A stretch of 64,000 nucleotides of DNA from an uncultured Alphaproteobacteria bacterium (GCA_934254585.1 CAKQLF010000001.1:28093-92092); one strand, 5' to 3'. Numbered from the stretch's first letter, positions 6,158 to 64,000 are shown. Program-made: numbers and translations. Notes: generated from the sequence alone by a model not told the origin.

Positions 6158-6780
6158 TTTATCTTCCTTAAATCAAAAATTTCATACAAATAACCATCTG
6201 CACAATATTTGTTGGCAAAGCTATTGACTTTGAATATCCATTTTTTTCTTGCTTCTTGCAATTCTTCATTTCCGCTTTTACCTTTAAGTAACAAATAGCG
6301 AGTATTTTTTGAGTATATAGTTTTTGTAAAGTTAAAAATCTTATCAATTGTCGCAACAGCGCGCGCTGTTATATAATCCGCATTTTTAAATACAATGTTT
6401 TCAGCACGATTATTAACAACTTCAACATTCGTTAAACCCAAACAACCGCAGACATCTTTTAAATACACTGTCTTTTTAGTTATACTTTCAACTAAAACAA
6501 TCTTCGCTTCCGGAATTTTTTCTTGTAAAGCTATTGCCAACACAATTCCGGGGAAGCCGGAACCGCTTCCGATATCTATAATTAATTTTGCATTATTATC
6601 TATATGTTCAAGCAATTGTAAAGAATCTAAAATATGCCGAAAATCCAATTCGTTTTCCGCGTTTTTACTGACAAGATTTATCTTTTGGTTCCACTCCAAT
6701 AGTTGAACCTTAAAATCTTTTAATTTTTGCAATGTTTCACGTGAAACATTATATTTTAAAACTTCTTCATCAAAACTCAT
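6154..6780 (-). CDS. rsmG: 16S rRNA m7G527 methyltransferase RsmG (GidB)
   Basis: SAM-binding motif IDIGSGSGFPGI. Adjacent to mnmG and parA in the conserved order. Confidence 0.88.
   Translation of the reverse strand: MSFDEEVLKYNVSRETLQKLKDFKVQLLEWNQKINLVSKNAENELDFRHILDSLQLLEHIDNNAKLIIDIGSGSGFPGIVLAIALQEKIPEAKIVLVESITKKTVYLKDVCGCLGLTNVEVVNNRAENIVFKNADYITARAVATIDKIFNFTKTIYSKNTRYLLLKGKSGNEELQEARKKWIFKVNSFANKYCADGYLYEIFDLRKIK
6733..6748. promoter_or_regulatory. parS site (perfect TGTTTCACGTGAAACA) inside rsmG
   Basis: The 16-bp palindrome was read directly. Confidence 0.9.
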
Positions 6781-6845
6781 TTTTGCCTCTGTCTAAAGAC
6801 TAATGGGGATTTTTTATTTATGCAACAAAATATCTTGGTTATTAA

Positions 6846-7691
6846 CTAAAACTTCAAACGATTCTTAATTTTGTGCGCGGCAAGTGTAGCTTCGGCCAAA
6901 TCAAAACTATCCCCCAATTCAGCAACGCTGTGAGCATCATCACTTATCACAAAACTAATGTTACGTTTTGCAGCTTCCGTCAGTATCCAGTCGCAAGGAT
7001 AAAAATCCCCTATCTTCCGCAAACCTTTGCTACTTATTTCCATAGGCATATTCTGTTTTTGCAGCGCGTTTAAAATTGATATCTTTTCGCTTTTATAATC
7101 GTCTTTTGCGCAAAACTCTTCACCAATCTTACGAGCATAGTCAAGATGAGCCAAAAATTTAAATACACCGCTTTCAACCGCCATTTTAATAGTGTTGAAA
7201 TGACGTTGCAATAAATCTTTCTGCAAACTTTTATCAGGACAGAGCACCGGTAAGTCAGTAATATCAAATAAATTTTCGCATTTTTCATCAAACAACATAT
7301 GATTTCCGGAGATTAAATAATCATAATCAAGTTTATTTAAAAAATCTTTTAATTCTTCCAACCAACCATCATAAGTAAAAAAATCAACCTCGAATCCAAC
7401 GTACAATTTAAAATTTTCTCGTTCGGACAGTTTGCGAATTTTTTCACAATGACGTTGATAATCACTTAAAACAGACTTAAAATCATTATTAAAAATATTA
7501 TATTTACCGCGCTTATGCCAATATGGCCAAGATAAGCTTTGCGCCATATTTTTATGCACTATCAGATGGTCGCTGATTCCAAGTTCTTTGAACCCGATTT
7601 TTTTAGCTTTCGCCACCATTTCTTCCAAACTATTATTACCATCAGAAAAATTTGTGTGCGAATGATAAGAAAAATTTTGAATATCCGTCAT
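6846..7691 (-). CDS. PHP-domain phosphoesterase (histidinol-phosphatase-like)
   Basis: N-terminal HSHTNFSDG followed by DHL, the PHP metal-binding signature. 281 aa. Confidence 0.65.
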
Positions 7692-9571
7692 TTTTTTAAA
7701 TAACCTAAAATCGCGGTTACAGCAGCCGGTGTTACACCGCGAATGCGAGCGGCCTCGCCAATTGTTTTTGGGCGCACCAGAGTAAATCTTTGAATCATTT
7801 CCGTAGAAAGACCACCGATTTTACTATAATCTATATCTTCCTTTATTTCCAAATTTTCATCACGCTTAAACACCGCAATATCTTCATATTCACGTTTCAA
7901 ATATCCAGAATATTTTGCATCAATCTCAACCTGTTCAAACACATCGTTTTCAACCTTGCCGGTTTCCGGAAACAGTGTAGAAATTGTTTCACGTGAAACA
8001 TCTTGATAGCCAAGCAAATCTTTTAACGTTTTTTTACCATTATGTTTTACGGTTATTCCCAGTTTTTCAATTTCCGGATATGACACAATTTTATCACAGC
8101 AAAACTCGTTAAACTTGGATATTTTTTCTTCTTTTATTTTAAATACACTGTATCTATTTTCTGAAACACAGCCAATATTGTAACCTAATTCCGTCAAACG
8201 ACTGTCCGCATTGTCGGCGCGCAACACCAAACGATATTCCGAACGAGAAGTAAACATTCGATATGGCTCATCAACGCCCTTGGTTATCAAATCATCAACC
8301 ATAACTCCGATATATCCCTGACTACGGTCAATTTTTAATTCCTTATTTTTATTTAGAGCAAACAGTGCCGCATTTACGCCGGCAAGCAATCCTTGGGCTG
8401 CCGCCTCTTCGTATCCGGTTGTTCCATTAATTTGTCCGGCCAAATATAATCCTCTGGTCTTTTTTACAGCCAAACAATGGTCAAGTTCTTGCGGGTCGAC
8501 ATAATCATATTCAATGGCATAGGCATAGCGCAAAATTTCAACATTTTCCAAACCCTTCATTGTGTGAATAAATTCATCTTGCACATCGGCGGGCAAAGAG
8601 GTTGAAATTCCATTTGGATAGACAACATTTGTGTCGTAACCCTCGGGCTCCAAAAATATCTGATGAGATGTTCTATCCGCAAAACGTACCAACTTATCTT
8701 CAATACTCGGGCAATAGCGCGGACCTTTACCGGTTATCAATCCGGAAAACAAAGCGCATTTAGAAAAATTATCACGAATAATCTTATGGGTAGTTTCGTT
8801 TGTATATGTAACACCGCAATCAATTTGCTTATTTGAAAGATTTTTTGTTAAAAATGAAAATGGTATCGGATTTTTATCGCCGCTTTGCTTTTCCAAAACA
8901 GCCCAATTAATCGTATCACCATTTAAGCGTGAAGGCGTTCCGGTTTTTAAGCGACCAAGTTTTAACCCCAAAGATTTTAAATACGGTGTTACGCCAGTAC
9001 AGGAAATATCTCCGACACGGCCTCCGATACTAGTTTGATGACCGGTAAACATTATGCCGTTCAAAAATGTTCCTGTTGTTAAAACAACAGCCTTTGCTCT
9101 GTATTCCGAATTGTCAGCCAACTGCACTCCGCAAACCTGTTTATTTTCATCAATAAGCAAACCTTCAACCGCTCCCTCTTTTAATTCAAGATTCGGAGTA
9201 TTAGCCAGTGCCTCTTGCATATATTTTTTGTAAAGACTCCTGTCTGCTTGAGCGCGAGGGCCTCGCACGGCCGGACCTTTGGAAAGATTCAACATTCTAA
9301 ATTGGATTCCGGCTTTATCAATAACTTGCCCCATTAAACCGTCAAGCGCGTCAATTTCTCTCACCAGATGACCTTTTCCCAAACCGCCAATTGCCGGATT
9401 GCACGACATTTCACCAATAGTGGATATTTTATGCGTTATTAATAAGGTTTTTGCTCCGGTTCTAGCCGCGGCCGCACAAGCTTCACATCCGGCATGACCG
9501 CCGCCGACAACAATAACATCAAATATATTATTCATCTTTTCCCTCATAAATTTTTTTATAATAAAGCACAA
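7688..9571 (-). CDS. mnmG: tRNA uridine-5-carboxymethylaminomethyl modification enzyme MnmG (GidA)
   Basis: FAD-binding [14 protein letters not shown], about 620 aa, conserved GidA core. The true start is probably internal (MNNIFDV). Confidence 0.95.
7985..8000. promoter_or_regulatory. parS site (perfect) inside mnmG
   Basis: Read directly. Confidence 0.9.
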
Positions 9572-9593
9572 ATATATTATAATTGCAAATTAA

Positions 9594-9625
9594 AATACGC
9601 TGTATAAATTTAAATACAGCGTATT
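9594..9625. repeat. perfect 12-bp inverted repeat aatacgctgtat-N8-atacagcgtatt between mnmE stop and mnmG start
   Basis: Read directly. The arms carry the AAATACAG core of the recurrent regional motif. It could also act as an mnmE terminator or an operator. Confidence 0.7.
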
Positions 9626-9657
9626 TATAAAAATATTTTTTAAATACATCGTTACAT

Positions 9658-11031
9658 TTATTTGCCAATGCAAAAACTACTGAAAATTTTATCTAAAATT
9701 TCATCAACTTCAACCTGTCCGGTAATTTTGCCAATAGCGCGGCAAGCCAGACGAATATCCTCGGCAGCCAATTCAATTTCTTTATGCAAATTAAAGCGAG
9801 ATAAATTTTGCAAACATTCGCCCAACGCCTCTTTATATCGCTGACGAGTTATAAGTTGGGCAGTGCCTTTTTCATACATATCCTGAAATGTTTTATAAAT
9901 AGTTTCGGTTATAACGGAAATATTTTTACTTTCTTTGGCCGATATTAAAGCACAACCATTTTTTATTAAGTCGGCTTTTTCAGCTTCATTAATCTTATCC
10001 ATTTTGTTAGCCACAAACAAATAAGGAACTTCTATTTTATTTAAGTATTCCGAAAATATTTCCGGCGTATCCACCGCGGCGTCAAACATAAACAAACAAA
10101 AATCAGCTTCGGCAATTTTATCCTTAGCTAATTTGACACCAATTTGCTCTATTTCATCAGCAGTTTCCCGCAAACCGGCCGTATCTGAAAAAATAACCGG
10201 AAAGCCTTGGATATCGACATAAGTTTCAATCACATCACGCGTTGTACCGGCAATGTCTGAAACAATAGCCACGTTGCGTTTAACAATAGCGTTTATCAAG
10301 CTTGATTTTCCGGCGTTGGTCGGTCCGGCAATCACAACCTTAAAGCCATCACGCAAGCGTTCTTCTATTTTATTATCCTGAATATGCTTTTCTATTTCCT
10401 CAGATATTTTAAATACACCATTTTCAATTTTAAATACAGTGTCCTCAGGTATATTTTCATCAGGAAAATCAATATACGCCTCAATATATGACAGTATCGA
10501 CACCAAACGCGAACGCCAATCATTATACAAATTAAACAGATTTCCGCCCATTTGCTGCAAAGCAACTTTTTGCTGCAAAGAAGTTTCAGCATCAATCAAA
10601 TCAGCCAAGCCATCAGCCTCGGTCAAATCCATTTTACCATTATAAAAAGAGCGGCGTGAAAATTCTCCGGGTTCAGCCAACCGAAAATCAGGCAAAGCCG
10701 ATAAAGCGGTGAGAAAGCTTCTTATAACTGCCTTCGAACCGTGGCAGTTTATTTCAACAGTGTCTTCACCGGTAAAAGAAGCCGGAGATTTAAAAGCCAC
10801 TAACAAAGAATTATCCAATGTTTCACGTGAAACAGGATTATAAAACTTTGTTAAATACATTTTACGGCTGACAATTTTAGAAACATCTAAATCCGTCATT
10901 TGTGAAATAACGTCAAAAGCTTTTGCTCCGGAAATTCGAATTACGGCAACTCCGGACTTTCCAAAAACCGTTGACAAGGCATAAATTGTTTTGTTATCCA
11001 TTTTTATCTTTCTTCTGTTATTAAAATTCAC
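9658..11031 (-). CDS. mnmE: tRNA modification GTPase MnmE (TrmE)
   Basis: G-domain motifs GPTNAGKSSL, DTAG and NKMD, with C-terminal CIGK. Likely start is at the internal MDNKTIYA. Confidence 0.9.
   Translation of the reverse strand: MNFNNRRKIKMDNKTIYALSTVFGKSGVAVIRISGAKAFDVISQMTDLDVSKIVSRKMYLTKFYNPVSRETLDNSLLVAFKSPASFTGEDTVEINCHGSKAVIRSFLTALSALPDFRLAEPGEFSRRSFYNGKMDLTEADGLADLIDAETSLQQKVALQQMGGNLFNLYNDWRSRLVSILSYIEAYIDFPDENIPEDTVFKIENGVFKISEEIEKHIQDNKIEERLRDGFKVVIAGPTNAGKSSLINAIVKRNVAIVSDIAGTTRDVIETYVDIQGFPVIFSDTAGLRETADEIEQIGVKLAKDKIAEADFCLFMFDAAVDTPEIFSEYLNKIEVPYLFVANKMDKINEAEKADLIKNGCALISAKESKNISVITETIYKTFQDMYEKGTAQLITRQRYKEALGECLQNLSRFNLHKEIELAAEDIRLACRAIGKITGQVEVDEILDKIFSSFCIGK
10819..10834. 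promoter_or_regulatory. parS site (perfect) inside mnmE
   Basis: Read directly. Confidence 0.9.
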
Positions 11032-17087: not shown

Positions 17088-18046
17088 TATTCTAACCTCG
17101 AAAAATAATCATCTACTAATTTTAACGCAACGGACAACTCATTTAACTTTGTATATTGCTCACGAAACTTTTTGGCCTCGTATAAACTTTTGACATACCA
17201 ACCAATGTGTTTACGAGATATGGCCAATCCGCCTTTTTCACCATAATATTCAACAAGTAAATGCAAATGTTTAAGCAAAATTTGCTTAATTTCGGACACA
17301 GTCGGCACAGAAGAAAGTTTATTATGACGCAAATATTCATCTGTTTGGGCTAAAAGCCACGGATTTCCCAAAACCGCACGGCCAATCATCACTCCGTCAA
17401 CTCCGCTTTCTTCCATTCTTTGCTTAGCTTTTTGAGGAGAGTCAATGTCACCATTGCCGATTACAGGTATTTTTACGTTTTCTTTTACGACTTTTATGAT
17501 ATTCCAATCCGCTTCTCCGCTATATCCTTGAGAACGAGTTCTGCCGTGCACGGTGATATATGAAGCTCCGCTTTCTTCACACATTTTAGCAAACTCCACA
17601 GCGTTAACGTGTTCATTATCCCAACCTTTGCGAAATTTTACACTAACGCTGAGCGGCGTGGCTTTTGCCACTGTTTCAATAATTTTGGCAGCACGAGGCA
17701 AATCTTTCATCAACGCAGAACCGGCCTCATTGTTTACAATTTTTTTTACCGGACAGCCCATATTTATATCTAAAGAACGCGCTCCTAAATCCGCCACCAA
17801 TTTTGCCGCCTCGGCAAACAATTCGGCATCATTTCCCACCAATTGCACCACAACCGGATAGTTTTCTGACCGCACATCAGCAATTTGCCAACTCTTGGGG
17901 TTTTTACGTTGCAACGCATTTATGGCTGCCATTTCCGCATACATATTACCTTTTCCGCACGCGGCTAAAATTTCCCTAAACGGCCTGTCGGTAACTCCGG
18001 CCATCGGAGCCAAAAAAACTTGACTGTCAAACCCGCAAAATGACAT
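17087..18046 (-). CDS. dusB: tRNA-dihydrouridine synthase DusB (NifR3 family)
   Basis: LAPMAGVTDRPFR and DINMGCP TIM-barrel Dus signature. 319 aa. Confidence 0.85.
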   Translation of the reverse strand: MSFCGFDSQVFLAPMAGVTDRPFREILAACGKGNMYAEMAAINALQRKNPKSWQIADVRSENYPVVVQLVGNDAELFAEAAKLVADLGARSLDINMGCPVKKIVNNEAGSALMKDLPRAAKIIETVAKATPLSVSVKFRKGWDNEHVNAVEFAKMCEESGASYITVHGRTRSQGYSGEADWNIIKVVKENVKIPVIGNGDIDSPQKAKQRMEESGVDGVMIGRAVLGNPWLLAQTDEYLRHNKLSSVPTVSEIKQILLKHLHLLVEYYGEKGGLAISRKHIGWYVKSLYEAKKFREQYTKLNELSVALKLVDDYFSRLE

Positions 18047-28244: not shown

Positions 28245-28292
28245 TTTTATCTCCTTTAGCGTAACGATATGTTGTTATTACAAAAAAGGAGT
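28245..28292 (+). promoter_or_regulatory. possible SD-sequestering stem (RNA-thermometer-like) in leader of heat-shock operon
   Basis: Anti-SD ctcctt (28245-50) could pair with SD aaggag (28287-92) across about a 36-nt loop, upstream of the small peptide and Hsp20 genes. Confidence 0.25.
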
Positions 28293-28297
28293 AAAAA

Positions 28298-28444
28298 ATG
28301 AAAAAAGAATCTAAGTCATACGATAATAAAAAGTCATCTCAAAAAGCTCAACCAACTGTTTCTAAAGGCGGTTGCGGTTGTGGTTGCAGTGGTTCTTCCG
28401 TTTCGGAAATGGAAGAAATTGATGAAATTTCACTCAACAAATAG
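28298..28444 (+). CDS. small Cys/Gly-rich peptide (48 aa)
   Basis: Strong SD aaggag. Sequence MKKESKSYDNKKSSQKAQPTVSKGGCGCGCSGSSVSEMEEIDEISLNK. Ends 12 nt upstream of the Hsp20 gene. Confidence 0.4.
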   Translation: MKKESKSYDNKKSSQKAQPTVSKGGCGCGCSGSSVSEMEEIDEISLNK

Positions 28445-28456
28445 AGAGGCGTTTTT

Positions 28457-28936
28457 ATGAAAAATATGGCAGGTAACAGCCGGAGCCGCCATTCTGAAGT
28501 TGCCGCAGCTAATCGTCAAAACAATGACTTTGGCAGCCTTATGAATTATTTTTGGAATTATACAGATATGCCCGAAAGTTTTACCGAAGACTTGGAACCA
28601 AAAATTCAAGTAACGGAAACCAAAGACGCAATAAACGTTTCAGCAGAACTTCCGGGGATTGATGAAAATGATTTGGATTTGCAAATTTCCGCCAATGGTT
28701 ATTTAACTATTTGCGGCGAAAAGAAAAATTCAAACTCAAGTTCATCAAAAGATGCTTATTTTTCTGAAATTTCATACGGTATGTTCAAAAGAACAATTCC
28801 TTTGCCTTGGGATTTGGCTTTTGACAACGCTGACGCAACTTACAAAAACGGCGTGCTTAATGTTTTGATACCTAAAACACAGGTTGAAAAACAAAAATTC
28901 AAAAAAATTGCAATAAAAACAACTGATAAAAACTAA
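28457..28936 (+). CDS. small heat-shock protein (Hsp20 / alpha-crystallin family)
   Basis: Alpha-crystallin domain (LPGIDENDLDLQI....GVLNVLIPK). 159 aa. Confidence 0.85.
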   Translation: MKNMAGNSRSRHSEVAAANRQNNDFGSLMNYFWNYTDMPESFTEDLEPKIQVTETKDAINVSAELPGIDENDLDLQISANGYLTICGEKKNSNSSSSKDAYFSEISYGMFKRTIPLPWDLAFDNADATYKNGVLNVLIPKTQVEKQKFKKIAIKTTDKN

Positions 28937-28942
28937 AAGAAA

Positions 28943-28982
28943 AGTCTGTGTTTCAATTTTAATGGAACACAGACTTTTTTTT
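28943..28982 (+). terminator. rho-independent terminator
   Basis: agtctgtgtt-loop-aacacagact followed by T8. Confidence 0.8.
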
Positions 28983-29045
28983 ATGTGACACCCTCGCAAA
29001 CTTAATCAAAATTTAAATTATTTTATATAGATTACAGTTGAGTTT

Positions 29046-32000
29046 ATGTACAAAAACGAGGGTAAAATGTTTAAAAATAAAGTTTTAACAGAAACAACAG
29101 GTTTTGTAACGTTGATTTGTGTGGGGACATTAGCTTTGCCTACCAACTTAAAAGCCTATTATTTGCCGCCTGTTTCTTTTTCGGAAATGTATCGTTTAGC
29201 GCAAAGCGGTGATGTTGAAGCTTTAAGAGCCTCCGTCAGACGAGGATTAAATATTGATACAATTAACCAAAACGGTGATACCGGACTTTGTATAGCCGCA
29301 CGACGCCGTGATACCTATACTTACAATGCCTTTCGCGCTGCGGGTGCAAACCCTCACCACCCTTGTGTGCAGCGTATTGATTATTATAACAATTTTTTAA
29401 TTTCATCAAAGGCCGTACCTATTACCGCCACACCAAGAGAAGCTTACGGAGCTATTGGAAAAGAAACTTATAAAATTTCTTCAACAACGTGGTGGATTTT
29501 GGGAGGTCTGGCCGTTGGCGGTGGAATTGCCGCTTTAGCTATGGGCGGAGGAGGAGGCGGCGGTTCGTCTTCGGAAAAATCCAGTGAAAGCGGTATTGGC
29601 AACGTTATCGGTTCATCAGGTTCAACCCTAAAAACAACCTCTGGTTTGGCCACAAACAGTTCAGAGCTTAGTGTTGGCAATTCAAACTTATCTGAAGTCG
29701 CCGGAATAAATTTTAATAAAGATGTTATTTCCGCTGCAAAATCTCTAAATATTGCATTAAAAGCTGAAAACGGAGGTCAATATATAAACACTGCTGACAC
29801 AACCATAAATATAGGAGCCGGAGGAGCCGGTTTGGTTGCAGTTAATAACAGTAAGGTTATAAACAACGGTTATTTAAAATCAACTGAAACAGATTTTAAT
29901 GCGTCGGCAGGTATGATGGCCAGTAATAACTCCGAAGCCATAAACAATGGCAAGGGAATTATTGACAGAACAGGCGCAAACGGAATTGATTTAAAATTTT
30001 CCGGTTATAATGAAAACAACCTGATTATAGGTATGTACGCCGACACAAGTTCAAAAATAACCAACAACGGAGATATAAAAGGTTCGGCCACTCAAGCTAT
30101 TTCGGACCCGACAGCCGAAAACAAAAACAATTCTGAAAATTCTTCATCTTCCGGTTCGACAACGGCCGGCACTACTTCCGGCAACGGCACAATTGTCGGT
30201 ATGGAAACAATGATTATTAATGCCAACAAAGATTCAAGCGGAAATACTATCTATGCCATCAACGGCGAAAATGGCAATATTTCGCTGAGTGCCGGTGAGG
30301 GTATATCTTCCGGTACAGATGTAAAGCTAAACATTATTGGTATGAGTAGTTTTTTAGATAACTCTTTTCTTAATGGCAGTAAAAATATCCAACGTGCGGA
30401 AAAATCTTTTCTGGAAAATAATGGAAATATAACTCTGAGCTATACCGGTTCTTATTCCGCCGCGGCAGAAAACACTTTACGCAAAGGTCTGGGCGGAATT
30501 GTCGGTATAAGAGCTGATGCCAACACTACCGGCGTCAATAACGGCAATATAAACATAAAATTGACCGACACCACATCGTCAGCTGCAAACTCGGTTGATG
30601 TGGCGGCAGCTATGCAATCTGTTCACAGCGGTAACATAACCAATAAAAATAACATTAAAATTTCAACTTCTTCCACCAATGCCCGTATAACTTATGGTAT
30701 GATGGCCGTAGAAGGTGATGGTTCTGTTTCCGGATTATATACGGAAAATAAGCAAACTTTAGATAATATCGGCACAATAATAATGAATGCCAGTAATTCT
30801 TATGCTATGGCCTCATTCAACGGCGGAACGGTCGTCAACAATGGAACAATTACTATCGGCAACCAAGATGACAGTAATTTTGGTAAAAACACGGCAATGT
30901 ACGGTTCCGGCGACAGCTTTTTAACAACATTGAAAAATAATGGAACTATAAACGTTTACTCACAAAATTCTTACGCTATGCGCAACGACTTTAGCGGCGG
31001 AAACGTTATTTCTAATGATGGAACAATTTTTATTTCAAATTCAGCCAAAGGTTCAAATGTTTTCGGCGGAAATTACAGTAAAATTATTAATAACGGAACA
31101 ATTCAATATAAACCTGCAGCCTCAAATACTTCTGGTTCCGGCGGTTCTTCAGGTTCATCAACAACCGGCGGAACAGTTGGTGACAATTTGAATTTAACCC
31201 TTAATCAACACGTTATGGACACTAAATCTCCAACCGTTTCTTCCGTCACTTCAAGCGGTAACGAACAAGCTCTTAACAACGGAACTATTATTACAGAAAC
31301 TTCAAACACCTCGGCCATGAGTGTAGAAACTTCACAAGGTTCCGCTATTAACAACAATATTATTACAGTTGCGGCAAATAAATTAAAAGATAATGGAGTT
31401 AATGCCGGAATGTATCTTTCTGCAGATACTGAAAAATCCGCGAAAATTGTCAATAACGGACAAATAAACATTAATACTTCTTATTCCGTGGGAATGGGTA
31501 GCGCGTCTTCATATAATTCAAGAATCGAAAACGCCGAAAACGGAGTTATCAACCTTAATGCCGATAAAACCATCGGTCTTTATGCTTCGGGAAACAGCAA
31601 CTTGTTTAATAATGGCACTATAAATGTAAATAGTGATGACAGTATTGCTATTTTTTCGGCCGGAACAGGAACAGGGCAAAACAGCGCGCTTATATCCAAC
31701 AGTATTATCAATGTCAAAGGGAAAAATGCCATTATCTATCAAATTAACGGCTCTGCGGAAATAAATCAAAACGGGCGCATTAATATTGACGATTCCGTAA
31801 AATCAACTGCCACTTATTACTATGTAAACGGTTCTTTAAACTTAAAGAATATTGATTTAGGTATTGATTCCGGAAATTTTGTAAAAATCGGCTCTAACGG
31901 CAACGGAACTTTATCTATAGATGAAACAACTTCACTTTCAATCAGCAAGCAAGGAACAATTATAAACGCTGAAAACGGAGCAACATCTATCATTAATAAA

Positions 32001-33959
32001 GGAACATTAAGCTTACCAAGCGGTTCGGGAAGTTATGTTATGCTTTTAGATAAAAGTGCTAAAGCCGAAAATTATGGCACCATAAATGTTAATGGTGAAA
32101 ACAACTATGGTGTTTATATTAAGTCAGGTGAATTCAGCAATAAGAGTATAAGCACCGGCCCAGAACAACCAACTATAAATGTAAAAGGAAATAACAATTA
32201 CGGTATTTTTGCCATAAATGACGCCAAAATTACCAATGAAGGAAATATTAATGTTTCCGGAAACGATAATTACGGTTTATATTCTCAAAGCAGTGAAGAT
32301 ATAACCAATTCGGGAACAATTACCTTAACAGGTTCAAATAACTATGGTATTTATTCTGTTGCTGAAGGAAAAATAATCAACAGCGGCCGCATAAATGTTC
32401 AAGGTTCGGGAAATATTGGAATATACACCTCGCAAGCTAATGTTGAAAATAACGGAACAATTAATGTTTCCAGCGGGTCGACGGGAATAAAAGCGGAAAA
32501 AGCCGGATTAGTTAAAAATAACGGTGTTATCAACGGCAGCGGAACAGATATTGACCAACCAAGCGATGAAACTTCGCAAGCCTCTTTAGCCGCTAAAAAC
32601 TTTTTACAGGTTAAAACTAAAGGTATTATAAAAAACAATGGCCTTATTACCGCCAAAAATTTTAATTTTGACGAATCTAACGATGGAAGCGGACAAATTG
32701 TTGTTGGTAAAAACGGAACATACAAAGCACAATCACTAAGCGGAACTGTTGTTGCTGATGCCGACATTTCTCAAAACGGATTTAACACAGTCTATAGAAA
32801 TGATAATTCCTTTATCGGAAAAGACAATGGTTTAAATATCGTTTCCGGCTCTTATTTGTTTAATGCGCAAAAAGCTCTAAACAGTAATGGTAACACCGAT
32901 GTTGTTATGACAATGAAATCATTTAACGATGTAATAGATAATCAAGAATTTGCTGATTATTTAACTGAAAACTACCAAGCGCGTAAAGGTGAAGAAACAT
33001 TTAATTTGCTAAAAGGAGCAACTACCGCCCAAAGTTTTACAACTATAAAGAATAGAGAATTCGGGTTTAGTATGCTGCCAAACTTAGCAAAGCAGGATTT
33101 AGACATTTTAAACAATGTCAACCGCGCTATAAATGATGATGTTTTGGTTTCAACAACAGAAAACAGCCGCGCTAAAGTTAATGTTCTTACCTATCAGCAA
33201 AAAATAGGCAACAAGCAAGAAGTTTCCGGTTATAAAGATATGGTTAAAGCTGTTTACGGATTTAACGATTATCAAACAGCTGACAAATGGCGAGTTGGAT
33301 TTGGTGCCGCGGCGGCGCGTTCTGACACCAAATTTAACGATAATTCAAAACGTTATAACAATATATTGGAAATATTTACACCCTTAACTTATGTAAATGA
33401 CAATTTCCGCGCTATGACAAAACCTTTAATCGGTTTTGGAAAAGGTCATTATCGTCGCTTTGGCGGTAGCAATATTTATAAGGCCGACTTAACCAACTAT
33501 TATTACGGTATAAACACAGAAGCTCGTAAAACTTATGATTTAGATGCCGCACAGCTTGAACCGACTATCGGGTTTAATGTTACAAATATGCGAATTGACG
33601 GCATAAAGGAAAGCAATAACGGCTTAAAAACTGATGATGACAACGTATTGTCGGCGCAATCGGTTATAGGATTAGATATTAAAAAGGATTTTGAATTAAC
33701 TGAAAATCAAACAATTTATTTAACAGCCGGTGGAAAATATTTCTATGAATTTGGAAATAAATATTCTACACAAGCAACTTTGGGAGATTTAATAAATTCT
33801 TATAAAATAGAAAGTAATCGTTTACAGCGAAACAGCGGTTTATTAACCGTAAAAGCACAATATGAAAATAAAAATTTAGCAATAAGTGCTTCGCTTAATA
33901 AGCCTTTGGAACAAAAGAATAATACTTATTATTTGTTTAACTTAGGATATAAATTTTAA
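29046..33959 (+). CDS. autotransporter-like adhesin (type Va) with beta-helical passenger
   Basis: 1637 aa. Signal peptide (probable start at ATG 29067 after SD gaggg). One ankyrin-like repeat (NGDTGLCIAARRRD...AGANPHH), a hydrophobic Gly-rich segment and a Ser/Gly linker. About 1000 aa of N-N-G-(T/V)-I-N repeats are typical of parallel beta-helix passengers. The C-terminal roughly 300 aa beta-barrel-like region ends ...NLGYKF. Confidence 0.75.
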   Translation: MYKNEGKMFKNKVLTETTGFVTLICVGTLALPTNLKAYYLPPVSFSEMYRLAQSGDVEALRASVRRGLNIDTINQNGDTGLCIAARRRDTYTYNAFRAAGANPHHPCVQRIDYYNNFLISSKAVPITATPREAYGAIGKETYKISSTTWWILGGLAVGGGIAALAMGGGGGGGSSSEKSSESGIGNVIGSSGSTLKTTSGLATNSSELSVGNSNLSEVAGINFNKDVISAAKSLNIALKAENGGQYINTADTTINIGAGGAGLVAVNNSKVINNGYLKSTETDFNASAGMMASNNSEAINNGKGIIDRTGANGIDLKFSGYNENNLIIGMYADTSSKITNNGDIKGSATQAISDPTAENKNNSENSSSSGSTTAGTTSGNGTIVGMETMIINANKDSSGNTIYAINGENGNISLSAGEGISSGTDVKLNIIGMSSFLDNSFLNGSKNIQRAEKSFLENNGNITLSYTGSYSAAAENTLRKGLGGIVGIRADANTTGVNNGNINIKLTDTTSSAANSVDVAAAMQSVHSGNITNKNNIKISTSSTNARITYGMMAVEGDGSVSGLYTENKQTLDNIGTIIMNASNSYAMASFNGGTVVNNGTITIGNQDDSNFGKNTAMYGSGDSFLTTLKNNGTINVYSQNSYAMRNDFSGGNVISNDGTIFISNSAKGSNVFGGNYSKIINNGTIQYKPAASNTSGSGGSSGSSTTGGTVGDNLNLTLNQHVMDTKSPTVSSVTSSGNEQALNNGTIITETSNTSAMSVETSQGSAINNNIITVAANKLKDNGVNAGMYLSADTEKSAKIVNNGQININTSYSVGMGSASSYNSRIENAENGVINLNADKTIGLYASGNSNLFNNGTINVNSDDSIAIFSAGTGTGQNSALISNSIINVKGKNAIIYQINGSAEINQNGRINIDDSVKSTATYYYVNGSLNLKNIDLGIDSGNFVKIGSNGNGTLSIDETTSLSISKQGTIINAENGATSIINKGTLSLPSGSGSYVMLLDKSAKAENYGTINVNGENNYGVYIKSGEFSNKSISTGPEQPTINVKGNNNYGIFAINDAKITNEGNINVSGNDNYGLYSQSSEDITNSGTITLTGSNNYGIYSVAEGKIINSGRINVQGSGNIGIYTSQANVENNGTINVSSGSTGIKAEKAGLVKNNGVINGSGTDIDQPSDETSQASLAAKNFLQVKTKGIIKNNGLITAKNFNFDESNDGSGQIVVGKNGTYKAQSLSGTVVADADISQNGFNTVYRNDNSFIGKDNGLNIVSGSYLFNAQKALNSNGNTDVVMTMKSFNDVIDNQEFADYLTENYQARKGEETFNLLKGATTAQSFTTIKNREFGFSMLPNLAKQDLDILNNVNRAINDDVLVSTTENSRAKVNVLTYQQKIGNKQEVSGYKDMVKAVYGFNDYQTADKWRVGFGAAAARSDTKFNDNSKRYNNILEIFTPLTYVNDNFRAMTKPLIGFGKGHYRRFGGSNIYKADLTNYYYGINTEARKTYDLDAAQLEPTIGFNVTNMRIDGIKESNNGLKTDDDNVLSAQSVIGLDIKKDFELTENQTIYLTAGGKYFYEFGNKYSTQATLGDLINSYKIESNRLQRNSGLLTVKAQYENKNLAISASLNKPLEQKNNTYYLFNLGYKF

Positions 33960-34036
33960 CGATTATATATTTGTTAAGAAGTGTTTGTTATAATCAAGGT
34001 GTTTAATGATTCACCTAATTTTATGAGGAAAGAAAG

Positions 34037-34087
34037 ATGAAAAATAAGCTTAGCAAAGGTCTCTCTCTCTCTCTCTGCAAATCCTAA
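34037..34087 (+). CDS. 16-codon upstream ORF containing a (CT)8 tract
   Basis: SD gagga 7 nt upstream. Encodes MKNKLSKGLSLSLCKS. Speculative as a translated uORF. Confidence 0.2.
   Translation: MKNKLSKGLSLSLCKS
34060..34076. repeat. (TC)8 dinucleotide microsatellite
   Basis: tctctctctctctctct read directly. Only such tract in the window. Confidence 0.9.
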
Positions 34088-34475
34088 ATGTCTGATTAAA
34101 GGCATATTTTCTGCCGCTACAGACGTTTTTGCAAGTTTTTTCAGAAAAAATGACATATTAAAAAATAACAAGCACAGCACGAAACTGGCAGGCGGCACAA
34201 AGCAAGCAATTCTAGCACCAGTCATTATAGGCCCTGTGCCTAGAATCTTGTTGCAACAAGGTACTAACCTAGTCAATAAATTTGCCTTATTATTACATAA
34301 GTGTCGGTTCGCACAAGATTCTCGGGACAAGCCCGAGAATGACGGTAGCTGGAGGTGTTGGCTTAGTATTTGTTACAAGTTATTTAATTACCCCTCACCA
34401 GCAGACAAGTCTGCGACCGATAAGCCATCAAAGGGTTTGGATGTCGTGCGGCAATACGCCGTGCTTTTTGAACGA

Positions 34476-34495
34476 CGTGTACAGAGTAGTACACG
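34476..34495. repeat. palindromic element cgtgtac-N6-gtacacg (copy A)
   Basis: Perfect 7-bp arms. Lies within the conserved direct repeat cgacgtgtaca...agtacacgag. Confidence 0.8.
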
Positions 34496-34588
34496 AGTGA
34501 GAAAAGCGCAAGCAGTGAACGGACAGACAAAACATATTAGAAATCTTCTTCCGCAATGTGCGTCAGATGCGACGGGATTTTTAAGCGA

Positions 34589-34609
34589 CGTGTACAAAAA
34601 AAGTACACG
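34589..34609. repeat. palindromic element cgtgtac-N7-gtacacg (copy B)
   Basis: Same arms as copy A, about 113 bp downstream and 26 nt before the pilin-like GTG. Confidence 0.8.
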
Positions 34610-34634
34610 AGCGCGAAAATTCCTAGCAGATGGC

Positions 34635-35282
34635 GTGCAGTACGGTAGAAGTATGATTGAGATGTTGGGCGTTTTGGCCATCATCGCTGTTTTGAGCGTT
34701 GGCGGTATTGCCGGATATTCTAAGGCAATGGAAAAATTCAAACTTAATAAGGCTATGGATGAATACAGCTATCTTATTTATGGGTTGCTGGAACACTTAG
34801 ATGAAATTAAATATTCCACTAAATCCAGAGACGGAAATGATACTCCTGTTGTGGAATTAGCTAATAATTTGAATTTGGTTCCTCCGACATGGACAATGAT
34901 AGCAAACAATCTTAATGTTAGTCATAAAAATTTATTTGAAGACCCATATAACAATCTTTTATCTATTTACTCAAAAAACGGAAATTTGCGTTTTGATTTT
35001 ATTTTAGGCGGTTCGCAATTTAAGGACGAAGGTTCTTGGATAACTGAAAATTTTTCAACCAAATTCTGTATGGAATTGGTAAACAATGTTGTCAAACCAT
35101 TGCATTCTTCTTTGGAATTTTTATTTTTTTACAGGTCAAAAGGAAACTCATCCACTTTTTATGGTGATAAGAATTGTTCTTCCGGACGCAAATGTTTGAG
35201 TGATATCAGTATAAAAGAAGTGTATGATAATTGTAAACGTTGCTCAAAAAAAGAAGTTTGTTCAGTAACTATAGACTTTTAA
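34635..35282 (+). CDS. type IV pilin-like protein, paralog 1 (class-III-signal-like N-terminus)
   Basis: Track ORF 34236..35282. The start is reassigned to in-frame GTG 34635 because DNA conservation with paralog 2 begins exactly there (gtgcagtNcggNagaagtatgat). N-terminus ..G-RSMIEMLGVLAIIAVLSVGGIAGYSKAMEK has Glu at +5 of the hydrophobic segment. The C-terminal Cys motif CSSGRKCL...CKRC...EVCSV is shared with paralog 3. Confidence 0.55.
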   Translation: MQYGRSMIEMLGVLAIIAVLSVGGIAGYSKAMEKFKLNKAMDEYSYLIYGLLEHLDEIKYSTKSRDGNDTPVVELANNLNLVPPTWTMIANNLNVSHKNLFEDPYNNLLSIYSKNGNLRFDFILGGSQFKDEGSWITENFSTKFCMELVNNVVKPLHSSLEFLFFYRSKGNSSTFYGDKNCSSGRKCLSDISIKEVYDNCKRCSKKEVCSVTIDF

Positions 35283-35394
35283 ATTGTATATAATAGATAT
35301 CCACCAGTAATGATGAACTTCTTCCTTAAAGGTGGGTTTCCACTTTCTGGGGTACAGTTCAAAATCGGGTGATTTCTGTAACGAATGTATTAAA

Positions 35395-35424
35395 AGCTCG
35401 TGTAACACTGAATTTACACGAGCT
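35395..35424. terminator. bidirectional hairpin terminator; also third copy of cgtgta...tacacgag palindrome family
   Basis: agctcgtgtaa-cactgaat-ttacacgagct, then ttcattttt on plus and T-rich on minus. Between convergent pilin-like gene and rho. Confidence 0.6.
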
Positions 35425-35445
35425 TTCATTTTTATCATTCAAACT

Positions 35446-36699
35446 TTAAGAATTCATATTTTGGAAAAAGTCAGCATTATTTTTAGTTTGACGAAGTTTA
35501 TCCAATAAAAATTCCATACCGTCAGTCATACCCATTTGCATAAGCACACGGCGCAAAACCCACATTTTGGTCAATGTAGCCCTATCAACCAACATTTCTT
35601 CCTTACGGGTGCCGGAACGAGTGATATCAATGGTAGGGAACAATCGTTTATCGGTTAATTTTCTATCCAAAATTATTTCCGAATTACCTGTTCCTTTAAA
35701 TTCTTCAAAAATAACTTCGTCCATACGCGAACCGGTATCAATCAATGCTGTGGCAATAATGGTTAAAGAACCGCCTTCTTCCACATTTCGAGCCGCACCT
35801 AAAAGACGCTTAGGACGTTGCAGAGCGTTGGCATCAACACCACCTGTTAAAACCTTACCAGATGATGGAACAACCGCGTTATACGCTCTTCCTAGACGAG
35901 TAATTGAATCTAAAAGAATTACAACATCTTTTTTATTTTCAACCAAACGCTTAGCTTTTTCAATACACATTTCCGCAACTTGAACGTGTCGTGTTGATGG
36001 TTCGTCAAAAGTTGAAGAAATAACTTCGCCTTTAACCGAACGTGTCATATCCGTAACTTCTTCCGGACGCTCATCAATCAACAACACCATTAAATATACT
36101 TCAGGGTGATTAGTGGAAATGGCGTGGGCTATATTTTGCAGCATCACGGTTTTACCGGTGCGCGGCGGTGCCACAATCAAACCGCGCTGCCCTTTGCCTT
36201 GCGGAGCTATCAAATCAATAACGCGTGTTGTATAATCCTTATCCTTGCATATAATGTCAAAATTAAGCTTTTCTGTCGGATATAACGGAGTTAAATTATC
36301 AAAATTCACACGCAATTTAGATTTTTCAGGGTCATCAAAATTAATGGCATTAACCTTGGTTAAGGCAAAATAGCGTTCATTATCTTTTGGCGCGCGAATT
36401 TCACCTTCCACAGTGTCCCCCGTGCGTAATCCATATTTTTTAACCTGAGCCGGAGAAACGTATATATCATCAGGACTGGCTAAATAATTTGATTTTGAAG
36501 AACGTAAAAAACCAAACCCGTCTTGCAAAACTTCTATTACTCCGTCACCGCAAATAACCGTGTCTACTTCTGACAGTTTTTTCATTATGGCGAATATTAA
36601 ATCTTGAACACGCATAGAAGATGCGTCTTCAACTCCCAAATCTTCTGCTTGAGTTAACAACTCAGTCGGAGATTTCTCCTTTAATTCTTTTAAATGCAT
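35446..36699 (-). CDS. rho: transcription termination factor Rho
   Basis: 417 aa. N-terminal RNA-binding domain, Walker A GKT and RecA-like core. Confidence 0.95.
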
Positions 36700-36872
36700 T
36701 TTTACCTTAAATTTTGTATGATTGTTAAAAATAGAATGTGAAACATTGAAATGTTTGTTGGTTTGCTTATATAAAAGATGAAGTTAAAAGTCAAATGTTT
36801 TTTATGCACATTTCTTTTCCCTTATTAATATTTTAAATTTAAATAGTTATTGTTATATATGCTTGCGAAATA

Positions 36873-36894
36873 TGTGGATAAATTTATATCCACA
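36873..36894. promoter_or_regulatory. inverted pair of DnaA boxes (tgtggataa / atatccaca)
   Basis: The 9-mer TTATCCACA is perfect on the minus strand at 36873-81. It matches 8 of 9 on the plus strand at 36886-94. Confidence 0.6.
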
Positions 36895-36927
36895 GAGTTA
36901 ATAACATTAATAAATTGTTTAACAAAG

Positions 36928-36969
36928 TTAATAAATAGTTAATTATTCAATAAGTTAAAAAATAGTTAA
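36928..36969. promoter_or_regulatory. two CtrA-box-like sites TTAA-N7-TTAA within an 18-bp direct repeat AGTTAAnAAATAGTTAAT
   Basis: ttaataaatagttaa (36928-42) and ttaaaaaatagttaa (36955-69). The region is about 80% A+T with several gttaataa repeats. Confidence 0.35.
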
Positions 36970-37097
36970 TATTTTTTTCAACATATCTTAATAAAATTTA
37001 TCTGATGTTAATAAGTTTGTATAATATTTTTACAAAAAGTTGATACTTTGTTAAAAACTAAAGTTGTAATAAAGTTATGCACATTTTGGGGTGTGTT

Positions 37098-37106
37098 TGT
37101 GGATAA
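37098..37106 (-). promoter_or_regulatory. DnaA box (perfect TTATCCACA) 30 nt upstream of coaE
   Basis: tgtggataa read directly. Confidence 0.6.
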
Positions 37107-37136
37107 GCATTATAACTTTTTGATATAAGGCAAAAG

Positions 37137-37724
37137 ATGAAAATAATTGCGATTACAGGTTCAATTGGGTGTGGTAAAACATTCTTAACCAATATCATAA
37201 GAAATCTTGGATTTGTGGTTTATAATATGGATAAATGGGTTAAATATTTATATTATAAGCCGGCGTTTCTTAATGTGGTAAAACAAAATTTTCCTGAAGT
37301 TTTTGAGGCAGACGGCAGTTTTAATAAACGAAAATTAAGAAATTTAGTGTTTAATGACAGTAAACGTTTAAAAAAGTTAGAAGCTTTGATTTATCCGTTT
37401 TTAAAACAAAAATTATTGAATATTATTCGTAAAAATTCACAAAGCGATAAAATTTTCTTTTTGGAAGCGGCTTTGCTGTTTGAATGTAATTGGAATGTTT
37501 ATTGTCAAACGGTTATTTTGGCTGATGTCGCTAAAAATGTTCAAAAAGAAAGAGTTATGGCAAGAGATAATATAAGTGCCGAAGATTTTGAAAAAATTAT
37601 TGCCTTACAAATGGATAATGAACAAAAAAAACAATATGCCGATGTTGTGATTAATACGGATAAAACTGAAAACTTATTAAAAGTCGAACTTATAAAAATA
37701 ATAGAAGAGTTAACAAATGCGTGA
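37137..37724 (+). CDS. coaE: dephospho-CoA kinase
   Basis: P-loop ITGSIGCGKT. 195 aa. In a coaE-dnaQ pair. Confidence 0.85.
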   Translation: MKIIAITGSIGCGKTFLTNIIRNLGFVVYNMDKWVKYLYYKPAFLNVVKQNFPEVFEADGSFNKRKLRNLVFNDSKRLKKLEALIYPFLKQKLLNIIRKNSQSDKIFFLEAALLFECNWNVYCQTVILADVAKNVQKERVMARDNISAEDFEKIIALQMDNEQKKQYADVVINTDKTENLLKVELIKIIEELTNA

Positions 37725-38436
37725 AATATGTTTTGATACGGAAACAACAGGTTTAGACCCTGATACCGGTGATAGATTGGTGGAAATAGGCGCGGTCGAG
37801 CTTATTAATCATTTGCCAACAGGAAAGATTTATCACGAATATATAAATCCGGAAAGAGATGTTCCCGAAGAAGTTGTAAAAGTGCACGGTTTGGACAATG
37901 AATTTTTAAAAGATAAACCGGTTTTCAGAGATGTGGCACAATCTTGGGTTGATTTTATAGGCGATGACGGAATTTTGGTGGCTCATAATGCCTCATTCGA
38001 CTTGAAATTTATTAATTTTGAACTGAAAAAATGCGGTTTTAAAACTTATGATTGGGACAGAGTTGTTGATACGTTGGCAATTGCCAGAAATGAATTTCCG
38101 GGGGCTCGTAATAATTTGGACGCCTTGTGCCGTCGTTTTAATGTAGATAATTCAGCGCGTACATATCACGGAGCTTTGTTAGATGCGCAATTGCTTGCCG
38201 AAGTATATTTGCAGTTATTGGGAGGCGATGAGCCAAGTATAAATTTTGTTAAATCATCGGCAGAAAATTCTCAAAAACACGGCGAAAATATCAGTTTTAC
38301 GGCGCAAAACGTGCAAAAAAGAGTGTTTGCTTTATCAGAAGAAGAACAGCAGGCTCACTTAGATTTTCTTGAAAAAAAAATTAAGAACGCTTTATGGTTA
38401 AAAAATACTGAAAGTGATATAAATAATGATGCTTAA
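37717..38436 (+). CDS. dnaQ: DNA polymerase III epsilon subunit (3'-5' exonuclease)
   Basis: Exo I motif FDTETTGLD, Exo II HNASFD and Exo III YHGALLDAQLLAEVY. Confidence 0.85.
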   Translation: MREICFDTETTGLDPDTGDRLVEIGAVELINHLPTGKIYHEYINPERDVPEEVVKVHGLDNEFLKDKPVFRDVAQSWVDFIGDDGILVAHNASFDLKFINFELKKCGFKTYDWDRVVDTLAIARNEFPGARNNLDALCRRFNVDNSARTYHGALLDAQLLAEVYLQLLGGDEPSINFVKSSAENSQKHGENISFTAQNVQKRVFALSEEEQQAHLDFLEKKIKNALWLKNTESDINNDA

Positions 38437-56104: not shown

Positions 56105-56643
56105 TGACAGAACAAAACGACGATGAAAAATTTTGGCTTGAAGTGGTTGAAGGTATTAAACCAATGCAATCCACTCAGGTTGTTTCACGTGAAAAAAAAT
56201 TAAAACCGGTGCAAAAAGAAAAAATTTATTATGCTGTAAAGCAGGAGTTTTCTACTTATTCCAAATTTTTAGATGATTTTGAAAACGGTGGAATAGACAA
56301 GTCTACTTTGCGTAAATTTAAGCGTGAAGAGTTTAGAGTGGAAGCTGTTTTGGATTTGCACGGGCTGACGGAAGACGAGGCTTTTGCCAAGGTTGACAGT
56401 TTTATTCCGCAAAGTTATGCTTTAGGCCGTCGCTGTGTGATGATTATAACCGGAAAAGGAATCAGAGTTCATCCGAATGACGATATTTTTACTTCTAAAG
56501 GCGTCTTACGCAAGCAAGTGCCGCAATGGCTGAATATGGCACGTTTGCGGGCTATGATATTGATTTATAAACACGCTTCGGAAAAAATGGGAGGTGAGGG
56601 AGCTCTCTATATTTTGTTACGGAGAAATAAAGATATTCAATAG
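56104..56643 (+). CDS. Smr-domain protein
   Basis: C-terminal Smr motif LDLHGLTEDEA...ITGKG. Conserved mltA-smr adjacency. Confidence 0.7.
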   Translation: MTEQNDDEKFWLEVVEGIKPMQSTQVVSREKKLKPVQKEKIYYAVKQEFSTYSKFLDDFENGGIDKSTLRKFKREEFRVEAVLDLHGLTEDEAFAKVDSFIPQSYALGRRCVMIITGKGIRVHPNDDIFTSKGVLRKQVPQWLNMARLRAMILIYKHASEKMGGEGALYILLRRNKDIQ

Positions 56644-57731: not shown

Positions 57732-57848
57732 AATATCAGTCTAACACTTTTTATGCTAAAAATAAACAAACTTTTTAAATTTTTAATTTTAACAACTTTT
57801 TAACCGGAATTTTTGCATAATATTCGTCAGATATTCAGGAGGACTAAG

Positions 57849-63576: not shown

Positions 63577-64000
63577 TCAATTTTGGTTTGTTTTTTTACA
63601 TTTAGCAGTTAAATCAAGCTGTTGTTTATATTCTGAAGTAGAAATTCCGCCAATACTCAGCAACGTGTGAAAAAGGTTATCGTGTGAAATCTTTTTATTT
63701 TTCGCGCTTTCGAGGCATTGTTTGTCTAAATTTAGATTTTGAAATGACGAATCATCGGCCCAAATAAAAAACGGAATATGTTTTTGTTCTTGCGGAGCAA
63801 TACGATATGGAGCCGAATGCAGATAAACATTATATTCGCCTAAAGATTCTCCGTGGTCGGACACATAGAATAACATACTGTTATATTCCGGCTTTTTTTG
63901 TAATATTGAAATGATATCGGCCAAATTTTGCGAGGTGTAAAGAATGGTGTTGTCGTAGGTGTTGACAATTTCTTCGGCCGAACATTTATTCAGTTTTTCG
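63577..64000 (-). CDS. phosphoethanolamine transferase (EptA/sulfatase family), C-terminal part; N-terminus beyond window
   Basis: YVSDHGESLGE...YLHSAPY...P signature of the EptA catalytic domain. The frame stays open upstream of the track start (a TTG at 63924) through to position 64000. Confidence 0.75.
   Translation of the reverse strand, partial: EKLNKCSAEEIVNTYDNTILYTSQNLADIISILQKKPEYNSMLFYVSDHGESLGEYNVYLHSAPYRIAPQEQKHIPFFIWADDSSFQNLNLDKQCLESAKNKKISHDNLFHTLLSIGGISTSEYKQQLDLTAKCKKTNQN

Follow-up and report, generated by a model that had tools for sequence, protein, structure and literature searches.

We analysed a 64,000-nucleotide stretch of DNA from an uncultured Alphaproteobacteria bacterium (GCA_934254585.1, CAKQLF010000001.1:28093-92092), hereafter called the window, with a focus on the intergenic spacer that separates the divergent genes rho and coaE. 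A model-generated reading of the same DNA without database searches (hereafter the sequence-only reading) had singled out this spacer as a candidate chromosomal replication origin (oriC) or a cell-cycle-controlled promoter. It had described the spacer as about 80% A+T, in agreement with the G+C content of 0.20 that we measured over its 437 bp. The flanking genes code for Rho, dephospho-CoA kinase and the DNA polymerase III epsilon subunit, all three of which pass the NCBIfam equivalog cut-offs.

36700-37136, no strand: entire rho-coaE spacer, predicted oriC; 437 bp, 20% G+C
35446-36699, minus strand: rho, left border gene, reads away from the predicted origin (NCBIfam TIGR00767, 684 bits)
37137-38436, plus strand: coaE (37137-37724) and dnaQ (37717-38436), right border operon, reads away from the predicted origin (NCBIfam TIGR00152 and TIGR01406, above cut-offs)

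A non-coding RNA or an overlooked gene in the spacer was considered and rejected, as an Rfam search of the spacer gave no match at E<=1 and an open reading frame (ORF) scan found none longer than 46 residues, the short ORFs present not being conserved.

Perfect copies of the DnaA box TTATCCACA occur only twice in the window, both in the spacer and on the minus strand, at the very coordinates given by the sequence-only reading (36873-36881 and 37098-37106). They are 225 bp apart, and each reads TGTGGATAA on the top strand. The 8-of-9 box reported at 36886-36894 and its inverted pairing with the first perfect box were both borne out as well. Our analysis adds two TTATGCACA boxes, which fit the degenerate consensus TTATNCACA, a weak box at 37006-37014 and, as described below, a full TTAA-N7-TTAAC reading of the CtrA-like sites.

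36802-36810, plus strand: DnaA box 1, TTATGCACA, fits TTATNCACA; place and orientation kept in five sister species, with only N varying (G or A)
36873-36881, minus strand: DnaA box 2, perfect TTATCCACA; invariant in five sister species
36886-36894, plus strand: DnaA box 3, ATATCCACA, 8/9 match, inverted with respect to box 2; CTATCCACA in sister species
37006-37014, minus strand: weak DnaA box, TGTTAATAA on the top strand, one mismatch to TGTGNATAA; invariant in sister species
37075-37083, plus strand: DnaA box 4, TTATGCACA, first of the proximal pair; 8 specified positions invariant in 12/12 aligned species, only N varying
37098-37106, minus strand: DnaA box 5, perfect TTATCCACA, 14 bp past box 4; conserved over 12 species

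Boxes 1 and 4 each lie within an exact 12-nt repeat, TTATGCACATTT, and besides ATATCCACA the spacer holds two one-mismatch boxes, at 37006 and 37016. To gauge chance, we compared these counts with 5000 dinucleotide-preserving shuffles of the spacer itself. The consensus TTATNCACA is found four times against an expectation of 0.066, a number that none of the 5000 shuffles reached, and it does not occur in the other 6563 bp of intergenic DNA of the window.

Homologous loci were collected through CoaE (49-79% identity) from 13 related species, which are represented by metagenome-assembled genomes, mostly labelled Alphaproteobacteria or Rhodospirillales, from human gut, rumen and deer gut; these loci are 30-40% G+C. 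Five of them (L006-L010, CoaE 73-79% identical) are hereafter called sister species, and L011-L018 are more distant; L001-L005 are conspecific strains. The arrangement of rho, a spacer of 435-528 bp and then coaE-dnaQ is kept in 13/13 relatives. One of the sister species, L008 (CAVGVF010000001.1), is labelled 'uncultured Eubacteriales bacterium', a label that is probably wrong given a Rho protein 99% identical to that of the window and the same gene order.

All five boxes are present at the same place and in the same orientation in the sister species, with changes at the degenerate position (G, A or T) in two of the boxes. Over six species, the specified box positions are invariant in 39 of 39 cases, against 65% of background columns (P=2e-8), and N varies in two of the five boxes. 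In 12 species, down to 49% CoaE identity, the specified positions of the proximal pair, TTATNCACA-N14-TGTGNATAA, show little or no variation; in box 5, T399, T401, G402 and T405 are invariant over these species, and G400, A404, A406 and A407 are at least 90% conserved. Box 2 is also kept in most of the distant relatives, with a 1- or 2-mismatch box at its place in L014, L016, L017 and L018, and the block aligned with the weak box at 37006-37014 is conserved family-wide, reading TGTGAATAA in L012. Over its full length, the spacer shares 77-80% identity with its counterparts in the five sister species; for the third codon positions of rho, coaE and dnaQ, the figure is 56-64%. Across 13 species, TTATNCACA occurs 47 times in 6.15 kb of spacers and 4 times in 151.8 kb of flanks, a ~290-fold difference in density. 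Conspecific strains differ at only 3 of the 437 spacer positions, none of them within a box.

The sequence-only reading had proposed GC skew as a check, and run on the window this check places the switch from negative to positive skew in the spacer. The raw cumulative skew falls to ~21 kb, is flat to ~36 kb and rises steeply from 37 kb. Because gene orientation confounds raw skew, we regressed per-gene skew on gene orientation and on the side of a breakpoint, trying every possible breakpoint. The best one, 36918, lies within the spacer for all sites and third codon positions alike, with a coding-strand term of 0.003 and a replication term of 0.188 at third codon positions. The skew at third codon positions also steps up across the spacer in 13/13 related species, irrespective of gene strand; for example, plus-strand genes to the left of the spacer are negative in L006-L010, and minus-strand genes to its right are positive in L011-L018. 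Five intergenic regions of the flat portion (20158-20937, 21947-22517, 24951-25353, 33960-34235 and 35283-35445) were considered as origins and rejected, as none has a TTATNCACA box. A ~13-kb block beside the predicted origin (21947-35445) has a G+C content of 0.30-0.38 and harbours mostly plus-strand genes, head-on to a leftward fork. Most of these genes belong to no family, and they include those for a 1637-residue BigA-like protein (29046-33959), an EF-hand protein, a zinc-ribbon protein and Hsp20. The block looks like accessory DNA inserted beside oriC.

The gene order of the window is dnaE-parB-parA-rsmG-(PHP phosphatase)-mnmG-mnmE on the left, then rho and, divergently, coaE-dnaQ-ampG-pentapeptide-rarA, followed further right by ppdK-carD-trmL-secB-Tim44-mltA-smr. 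This is an origin-proximal set of genes, and it comes with parS sites.

6733-10834 (span), no strand: three perfect parS sites, TGTTTCACGTGAAACA, at 6733-6748, 7985-8000 and 10819-10834, marking an origin-proximal domain (motif scan)

At up to three mismatches there are four parS matches against 0.49 expected, a count that none of 100 shuffles reached. The perfect sites sit within rsmG, mnmG and mnmE, 26-30 kb to the left of the predicted origin, and a one-mismatch copy lies at 56181-56196, 19 kb to its right. A replication terminus at the spacer was rejected on the sign of the skew change, the outward orientation of the genes and the parS sites.

The origin of alphaproteobacteria is usually next to hemE, and the sequence-only reading had remarked on the absence of this gene beside the spacer; that absence extends to the whole window. 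It finds its explanation in a published gene cluster of Rhodospirillales: in Azospirillum sp. B510, the origin was placed at a GC-skew shift in rho-hyp-hemH-hemE / hyp-maf-aroE-coaE-dnaQ, a cluster common to Magnetospirillum (PMC2818188). The outer genes of this cluster are kept here in the same order and orientation, and the inner five are gone from between rho and coaE. Thus, hemE is absent because the lineage keeps the outer genes without the inner ones.

With the skew switch in the spacer and the same step in 13/13 relatives, the candidate-oriC proposal is well supported, and we predict with high confidence, on sequence evidence, that the spacer is the chromosomal oriC of this uncultured, low-G+C gut alphaproteobacterium. 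It is very probably an ordinary DnaA-dependent origin in kind, located at the ancestral alphaproteobacterial position.

We then looked for the internal parts of an origin, beginning with stretches of low duplex stability.

36821-36860, no strand: candidate DNA-unwinding element, comprising the least stable 30-mer of the spacer and the T-rich TTATTGTTAT (from duplex stability)
36861-36867, no strand: G+C-rich heptamer GCTTGCG, separating the AT-rich stretch from box 2; CCCTGCG or CCTTGCG in sister species
36929-37029, no strand: AT-rich middle of the spacer, whose GTTAA units share a strand and are phased at ~10.5 bp; alternative candidate for unwinding, joint lowest in stability among the 100-mers of the window

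The segment 36821-36851, with a nearest-neighbour free energy of -27.3, is the fourth lowest 30-mer in the window. The stretch 36821-36860, which we regard as the most likely candidate, lies 5' of the G+C-rich heptamer and then of the top-strand TGTGGATAA box at 36873, and this is the order found in E. coli between the unwinding element and R1, namely an AT-rich element, a G+C-rich spacer and a top-strand TGTGGATAA box. Its TTATTGTTAT is kept family-wide as TTGTTATTTGTTTAT and is similar to TT[A/G]T(T), which DnaA of E. coli contacts in single-stranded DNA. One of the strain-level single-nucleotide polymorphisms falls within 36861-36867. Two exact matches to the IHF consensus WATCAANNNNTTR are present, at 37033 and 37113. 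They were set aside as evidence, since the former is not conserved in sister species and the latter overlaps the coaE ribosome-binding region.

DnaA-trios were sought as well, with the strand orientation of the rule reconstructed from E. coli and B. subtilis origins. For every box with at most one mismatch in 12 species, we scanned the 0-16 bp 5' of the top-strand TGTGNATAA for three NAN trios or more, according to published rules (PMC8287927). Scattered matches at some boxes are not conserved between species.

The middle of the spacer is dominated by GTTAA repeats, in which the sequence-only reading had noted two TTAA-N7-TTAA sites within a direct repeat. The repeat is indeed there, at 36925-36943 and 36952-36970; it is 19 nt long and 95% identical, and both sites extend on the minus strand to TTAA-N7-TTAAC, the complete CtrA consensus. 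Seen from the top strand, they are tandem GTTAA-N6-GTTAA units.

36927-36942, minus strand: CtrA-type site 1, TTAACTATTTATTAAC, full TTAA-N7-TTAAC; GTTAA cores invariant in five sister species, with a variable spacer
36954-36969, minus strand: CtrA-type site 2, TTAACTATTTTTTAAC, full TTAA-N7-TTAAC; same conservation footprint as site 1

By comparison with the shuffles, the spacer is enriched in full TTAA-N7-TTAAC sites (2 observed, 0.086 expected, P=0.006) and in GTTAA (10 observed, 3.0 expected, P=0.0014), and marginally only in TTAA-N7-TTAA without the final C (P=0.05). Nine of the 10 GTTAA are on the top strand, and 13 of 32 TTAA pairs are helically phased (P=0.01). Similar densities of TTAA-N7-TTAA throughout AT-rich intergenic DNA had been named beforehand as a finding that would speak against the proposal; the density is not similar, because the other 6563 bp of intergenic DNA in the window contain four such sites and no TTATNCACA, making the spacer, with two in 437 bp, ~7 times denser. 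In six species, the GTTAA positions of the two sites are invariant in 20 of 20 cases (P=1.4e-4), and the N6 spacers vary like background. Across the relatives, full TTAA-N7-TTAAC sites number 14 in spacers and 1 in 151.8 kb of flanks.

These observations indicate that the GTTAA-N6-GTTAA units are putative protein-binding sites under selection. As to the protein, a CtrA-type regulator is the likeliest from the motif and its conservation, with a chance somewhat short of even; an array of DnaA or another protein comes next, and what is left of the probability goes to no specific binding. Neither ctrA nor genes of its phosphorelay are present in the window. A protein database search with a Caulobacter CtrA query (top match 100% identical) gave, among the 120 matches listed, only Caulobacter-like proteins and is therefore uninformative on this lineage; a literature search for RF32 plus CtrA returned nothing relevant. 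The only other full TTAA-N7-TTAAC sites of the window, at 26613-26628 and 57789-57804, are both intergenic, one between divergent genes for a zinc-ribbon protein and an FAD oxidoreductase and the other upstream of a 103-residue ORF. Should the organism have CtrA, these two sites may mark members of its regulon.

The most serious competing view accepts the origin and takes the GTTAA repeats instead for a low-affinity DnaA array, for sites of another architectural or regulatory protein, or for phased curvature; we hold this to be a real possibility, though not the favoured one. An array is suggested by AGTTAATAA-AT-AGTTAATTA and AGTTAAAAA-AT-AGTTAATAT, which are 9-mers 2 bp apart as in E. coli oriC arrays, by GTTAA cores on the top strand, oriented like both perfect boxes, and by GTTAATAA, which is one specified position off GTGNATAA; the related TGTTAATAA at 37006 aligns with TGTGAATAA in L012. 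Moreover, L011-L018 have neither of the two CtrA-type sites at the homologous place. The pattern of variation speaks against a DnaA array: each of the four units retains its five GTTAA bases unchanged among the sister species, positions 7-9 of the would-be 9-mers vary in three of the four, and the proximal DnaA-box pair keeps all its specified positions invariant or nearly so in 12 species. In addition, both sites match the full CtrA consensus, and single full sites recur at non-homologous positions in the origins of L013, L015 and L018, almost never in flanks.

The sequence-only reading had raised DnaA/CtrA regulation of coaE-dnaQ and/or rho as an alternative. That the spacer is no more than a divergent promoter region under DnaA control, where DnaA represses or activates coaE-dnaQ and/or rho and the origin lies elsewhere, appears improbable to us. 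We did find candidate promoters facing outwards from within the spacer, both read by eye.

36766-36794, minus strand: candidate rho promoter, -35 TTGACT (36794-36789), 17-bp spacer, -10 TATAAG (36771-36766)
37048-37075, plus strand: candidate coaE promoter, -35 TTGTTA (37048-37053), 16 bp, -10 TAAAGT (37070-37075)

In the candidate rho promoter, 11 of 12 hexamer positions are invariant in sister species. A sigma-70 promoter scan of the spacer gave no more sites than in shuffles; it did not list this promoter, because it requires a T at the sixth -10 position. Box 1 adjoins the plausible rho -35. The proximal pair, boxes 4 and 5, would be situated at the plausible coaE promoter or shortly past it, about where the coaE transcript begins, and in 12/12 aligned species this TTATNCACA-N14-TGTGNATAA is found at an unchanging place a short way upstream of the coaE start (31-62 bp in the window). 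DnaA-box clusters away from oriC also exist in other bacteria such as B. subtilis. A role confined to transcription is nevertheless disfavoured by the skew switch, which maps to the spacer in the window and in 13/13 relatives, by the lack of a TTATNCACA box in any other intergenic region between 20 and 46 kb, and by the origin-type synteny and parS sites around the spacer; seven boxes over 300 bp and selection on all 437 bp exceed the needs of an operator. As a second function of the origin, DnaA boxes may also regulate rho and coaE-dnaQ: with outward rho and coaE promoters inside the spacer, the proximal pair may tune coaE-dnaQ expression.

The presumed rho leader contains a perfect palindrome, AAACATT-GA-AATGTTT (36742-36757), which may serve as an operator or form a hairpin in the 5' RNA; in the block around it (36741-36759), 18 of 19 columns are invariant among sister species (P=0.003).

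That A+T-rich intergenic DNA would yield these motifs by chance, without special function, can hardly be entertained: TTAA-N7-TTAA without the terminal C is marginal, and the promoter- and IHF-like matches are at chance level or not conserved, but no shuffle equalled the four TTATNCACA, the box density is ~290 times that of flanks in 13 species, box positions are invariant while N varies, and conservation is higher in the spacer than at third codon positions.

A number of points weigh against our identification of oriC or of its parts. Of the classical boundary genes, neither hemE nor the COG1806/DUF299 gene was found anywhere in the 64-kb window, nor was dnaA. The skew data consist of this window and 8-13-kb pieces of relatives, and a second switch or box cluster elsewhere is possible. 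Owing to the accessory plus-strand genes at 21-36 kb, the cumulative skew stays flat there, and the exact breakpoint thus depends on the regression, in which breakpoints 34098 and 35364 fit almost as well as 36918; the intergenic regions at these two breakpoints have no DnaA box. Duplex-stability arithmetic is the sole basis for choosing 36821-36860 as the unwinding stretch, and no conserved run of DnaA-trios was detected in 12 species, with none beside the two perfect boxes. Finally, a CtrA role has against it the missing sites of L011-L018 and the precedent of S. meliloti, which shows that an alphaproteobacterial origin can lack CtrA sites (PMC4433202).

From the general working of DnaA-dependent origins, we propose the following mechanism for the predicted oriC. 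DnaA would occupy the two perfect boxes (36873 and 37098) and the three near-consensus boxes (36802, 36886 and 37075), then spread to weaker sites such as that at 37006 and open the adjoining AT-rich stretch, most likely 36821-36860 or, alternatively, 36929-37029. Forks would exit both ways, co-directional with rho on the left and with coaE-dnaQ on the right. A putative CtrA-type response regulator bound to the GTTAA units would occlude the origin, as in Caulobacter. In the history of the locus, hemH, hemE, the COG1806 gene, maf and aroE would have been lost or moved from the origin flanks, and rho and coaE would therefore have become the border genes. A more elaborate scenario, in which a strictly host-associated, low-G+C gut lineage lost the heme genes that normally flank the origin and kept a Caulobacter-like, CtrA-gated origin with two tandem sites in its AT-rich core, the proximal pair doubling as an operator by which DnaA occupancy is coupled to expression of coaE and of dnaQ, the proofreading subunit gene, strikes us as speculative and rather unlikely.

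We compared the spacer with known origins. It shares with E. coli oriC the TTATNCACA consensus, high-affinity boxes at both ends and an AT-rich element followed by a G+C-rich spacer and a top-strand TGTGGATAA, and its GTTAA units have the 11-bp spacing of E. coli low-affinity arrays. Unlike R1 and R4, which are opposed, the perfect boxes here have the same orientation, and the spacer differs further in its neighbourhood and in having neither GATC clusters nor 13-mer repeats. The B. subtilis-type basal unwinding system (PMC8287927, PMC6669920) similarly places a DnaA box beside a G+C-rich spacer and an AT-rich stretch, but here, in the window as in relatives, the best boxes lack a conserved series of at least three NAN trios in the adjoining 0-16 bp.

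Among alphaproteobacteria, the closest parallel is the predicted origin of Azospirillum sp. B510 and Magnetospirillum sp. AMB-1, with rho on one side and coaE-dnaQ on the other, in the same order and orientation, and a GC-skew shift (PMC2818188). The locus differs in that hemH, hemE, the hypothetical gene, maf and aroE are gone, so that the origin directly adjoins rho and coaE, and in that parAB, downstream of dnaQ in B510, is found on the rho side, about 31 kb off. The experimentally defined origin of Caulobacter crescentus, Cori, lies between hemE and CC0001/COG1806 (PMC1914354). Like the spacer, it is intergenic, A+T-rich and several hundred bp long, and the two have in common some five DnaA boxes, TTAA-N7-TTAAC sites, matches to the IHF consensus and a border-gene promoter that reads outwards, a candidate one in the spacer. 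However, Cori has five CtrA sites, compared with two CtrA-type sites here, which lie between DnaA boxes without overlap and for which binding is predicted; the boxes here are near-perfect E. coli-type TTATNCACA, and the borders are rho and coaE, neither hemE nor COG1806. In size and A+T content, the spacer fits the published description of predicted alphaproteobacterial origins, which are intergenic, measure 383-620 bp, exceed their genomes in A+T content and carry DnaA, CtrA and IHF motifs (PMC1914354). The in-silico origins of Rickettsia, Wolbachia, Ehrlichia and Anaplasma are similar in size, A+T content and motifs, and there too the boundary genes change by rearrangement and the origin persists; all of them keep hemE as one boundary gene, unlike this lineage (PMC1914354).

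If correct, the prediction fixes where replication starts in a family of uncultured alphaproteobacteria of gut and rumen that are known solely through metagenome-assembled genomes. It would provide a zero point for genome orientation and for coverage-based (peak-to-trough) estimates of growth rate in metagenomes, as well as a candidate replicon for vector building. It also suggests that the hemE rule for alphaproteobacterial origins fails in lineages without heme genes, where the outer synteny rho / coaE-dnaQ still marks the origin. The conserved GTTAA-N6-GTTAA pairs offer a testable case of whether CtrA control of initiation reaches non-dimorphic gut anaerobes.

Additional observations concern the spacers of the sister species and the surroundings of the locus. 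GATTC, a form of the CcrM target GANTC, occurs three times in the spacers of L006-L009 (for instance at spacer positions 181, 243 and 407 in L006) and twice in that of L010, and two conserved GATTC sites directly adjoin DnaA boxes; the spacer of the window itself has no GANTC. Exact copies of the Rho protein are found on human-gut metagenome contigs from Hadza and other samples. Immediately 3' of rho (34236-35282 in the window, about 7417-8629 in L001-L005) is a slot occupied by a different gene in each conspecific strain, coding for proteins of 278, 403, 348, 209 and 229 residues without family matches, with Rho 100% identical throughout. On the minus strand, the gene at 18046-20157 (703 residues) gave a sub-threshold match to anti-phage ZorA (34 bits for a cut-off of 190) and more likely codes for a MotA/ExbB-like membrane protein. 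Also on the minus strand, the ORF at 63577-63924 corresponds to only the C-terminal ~115 residues of an EptA/MCR-type phosphoethanolamine transferase and is probably a fragment or a pseudogene.

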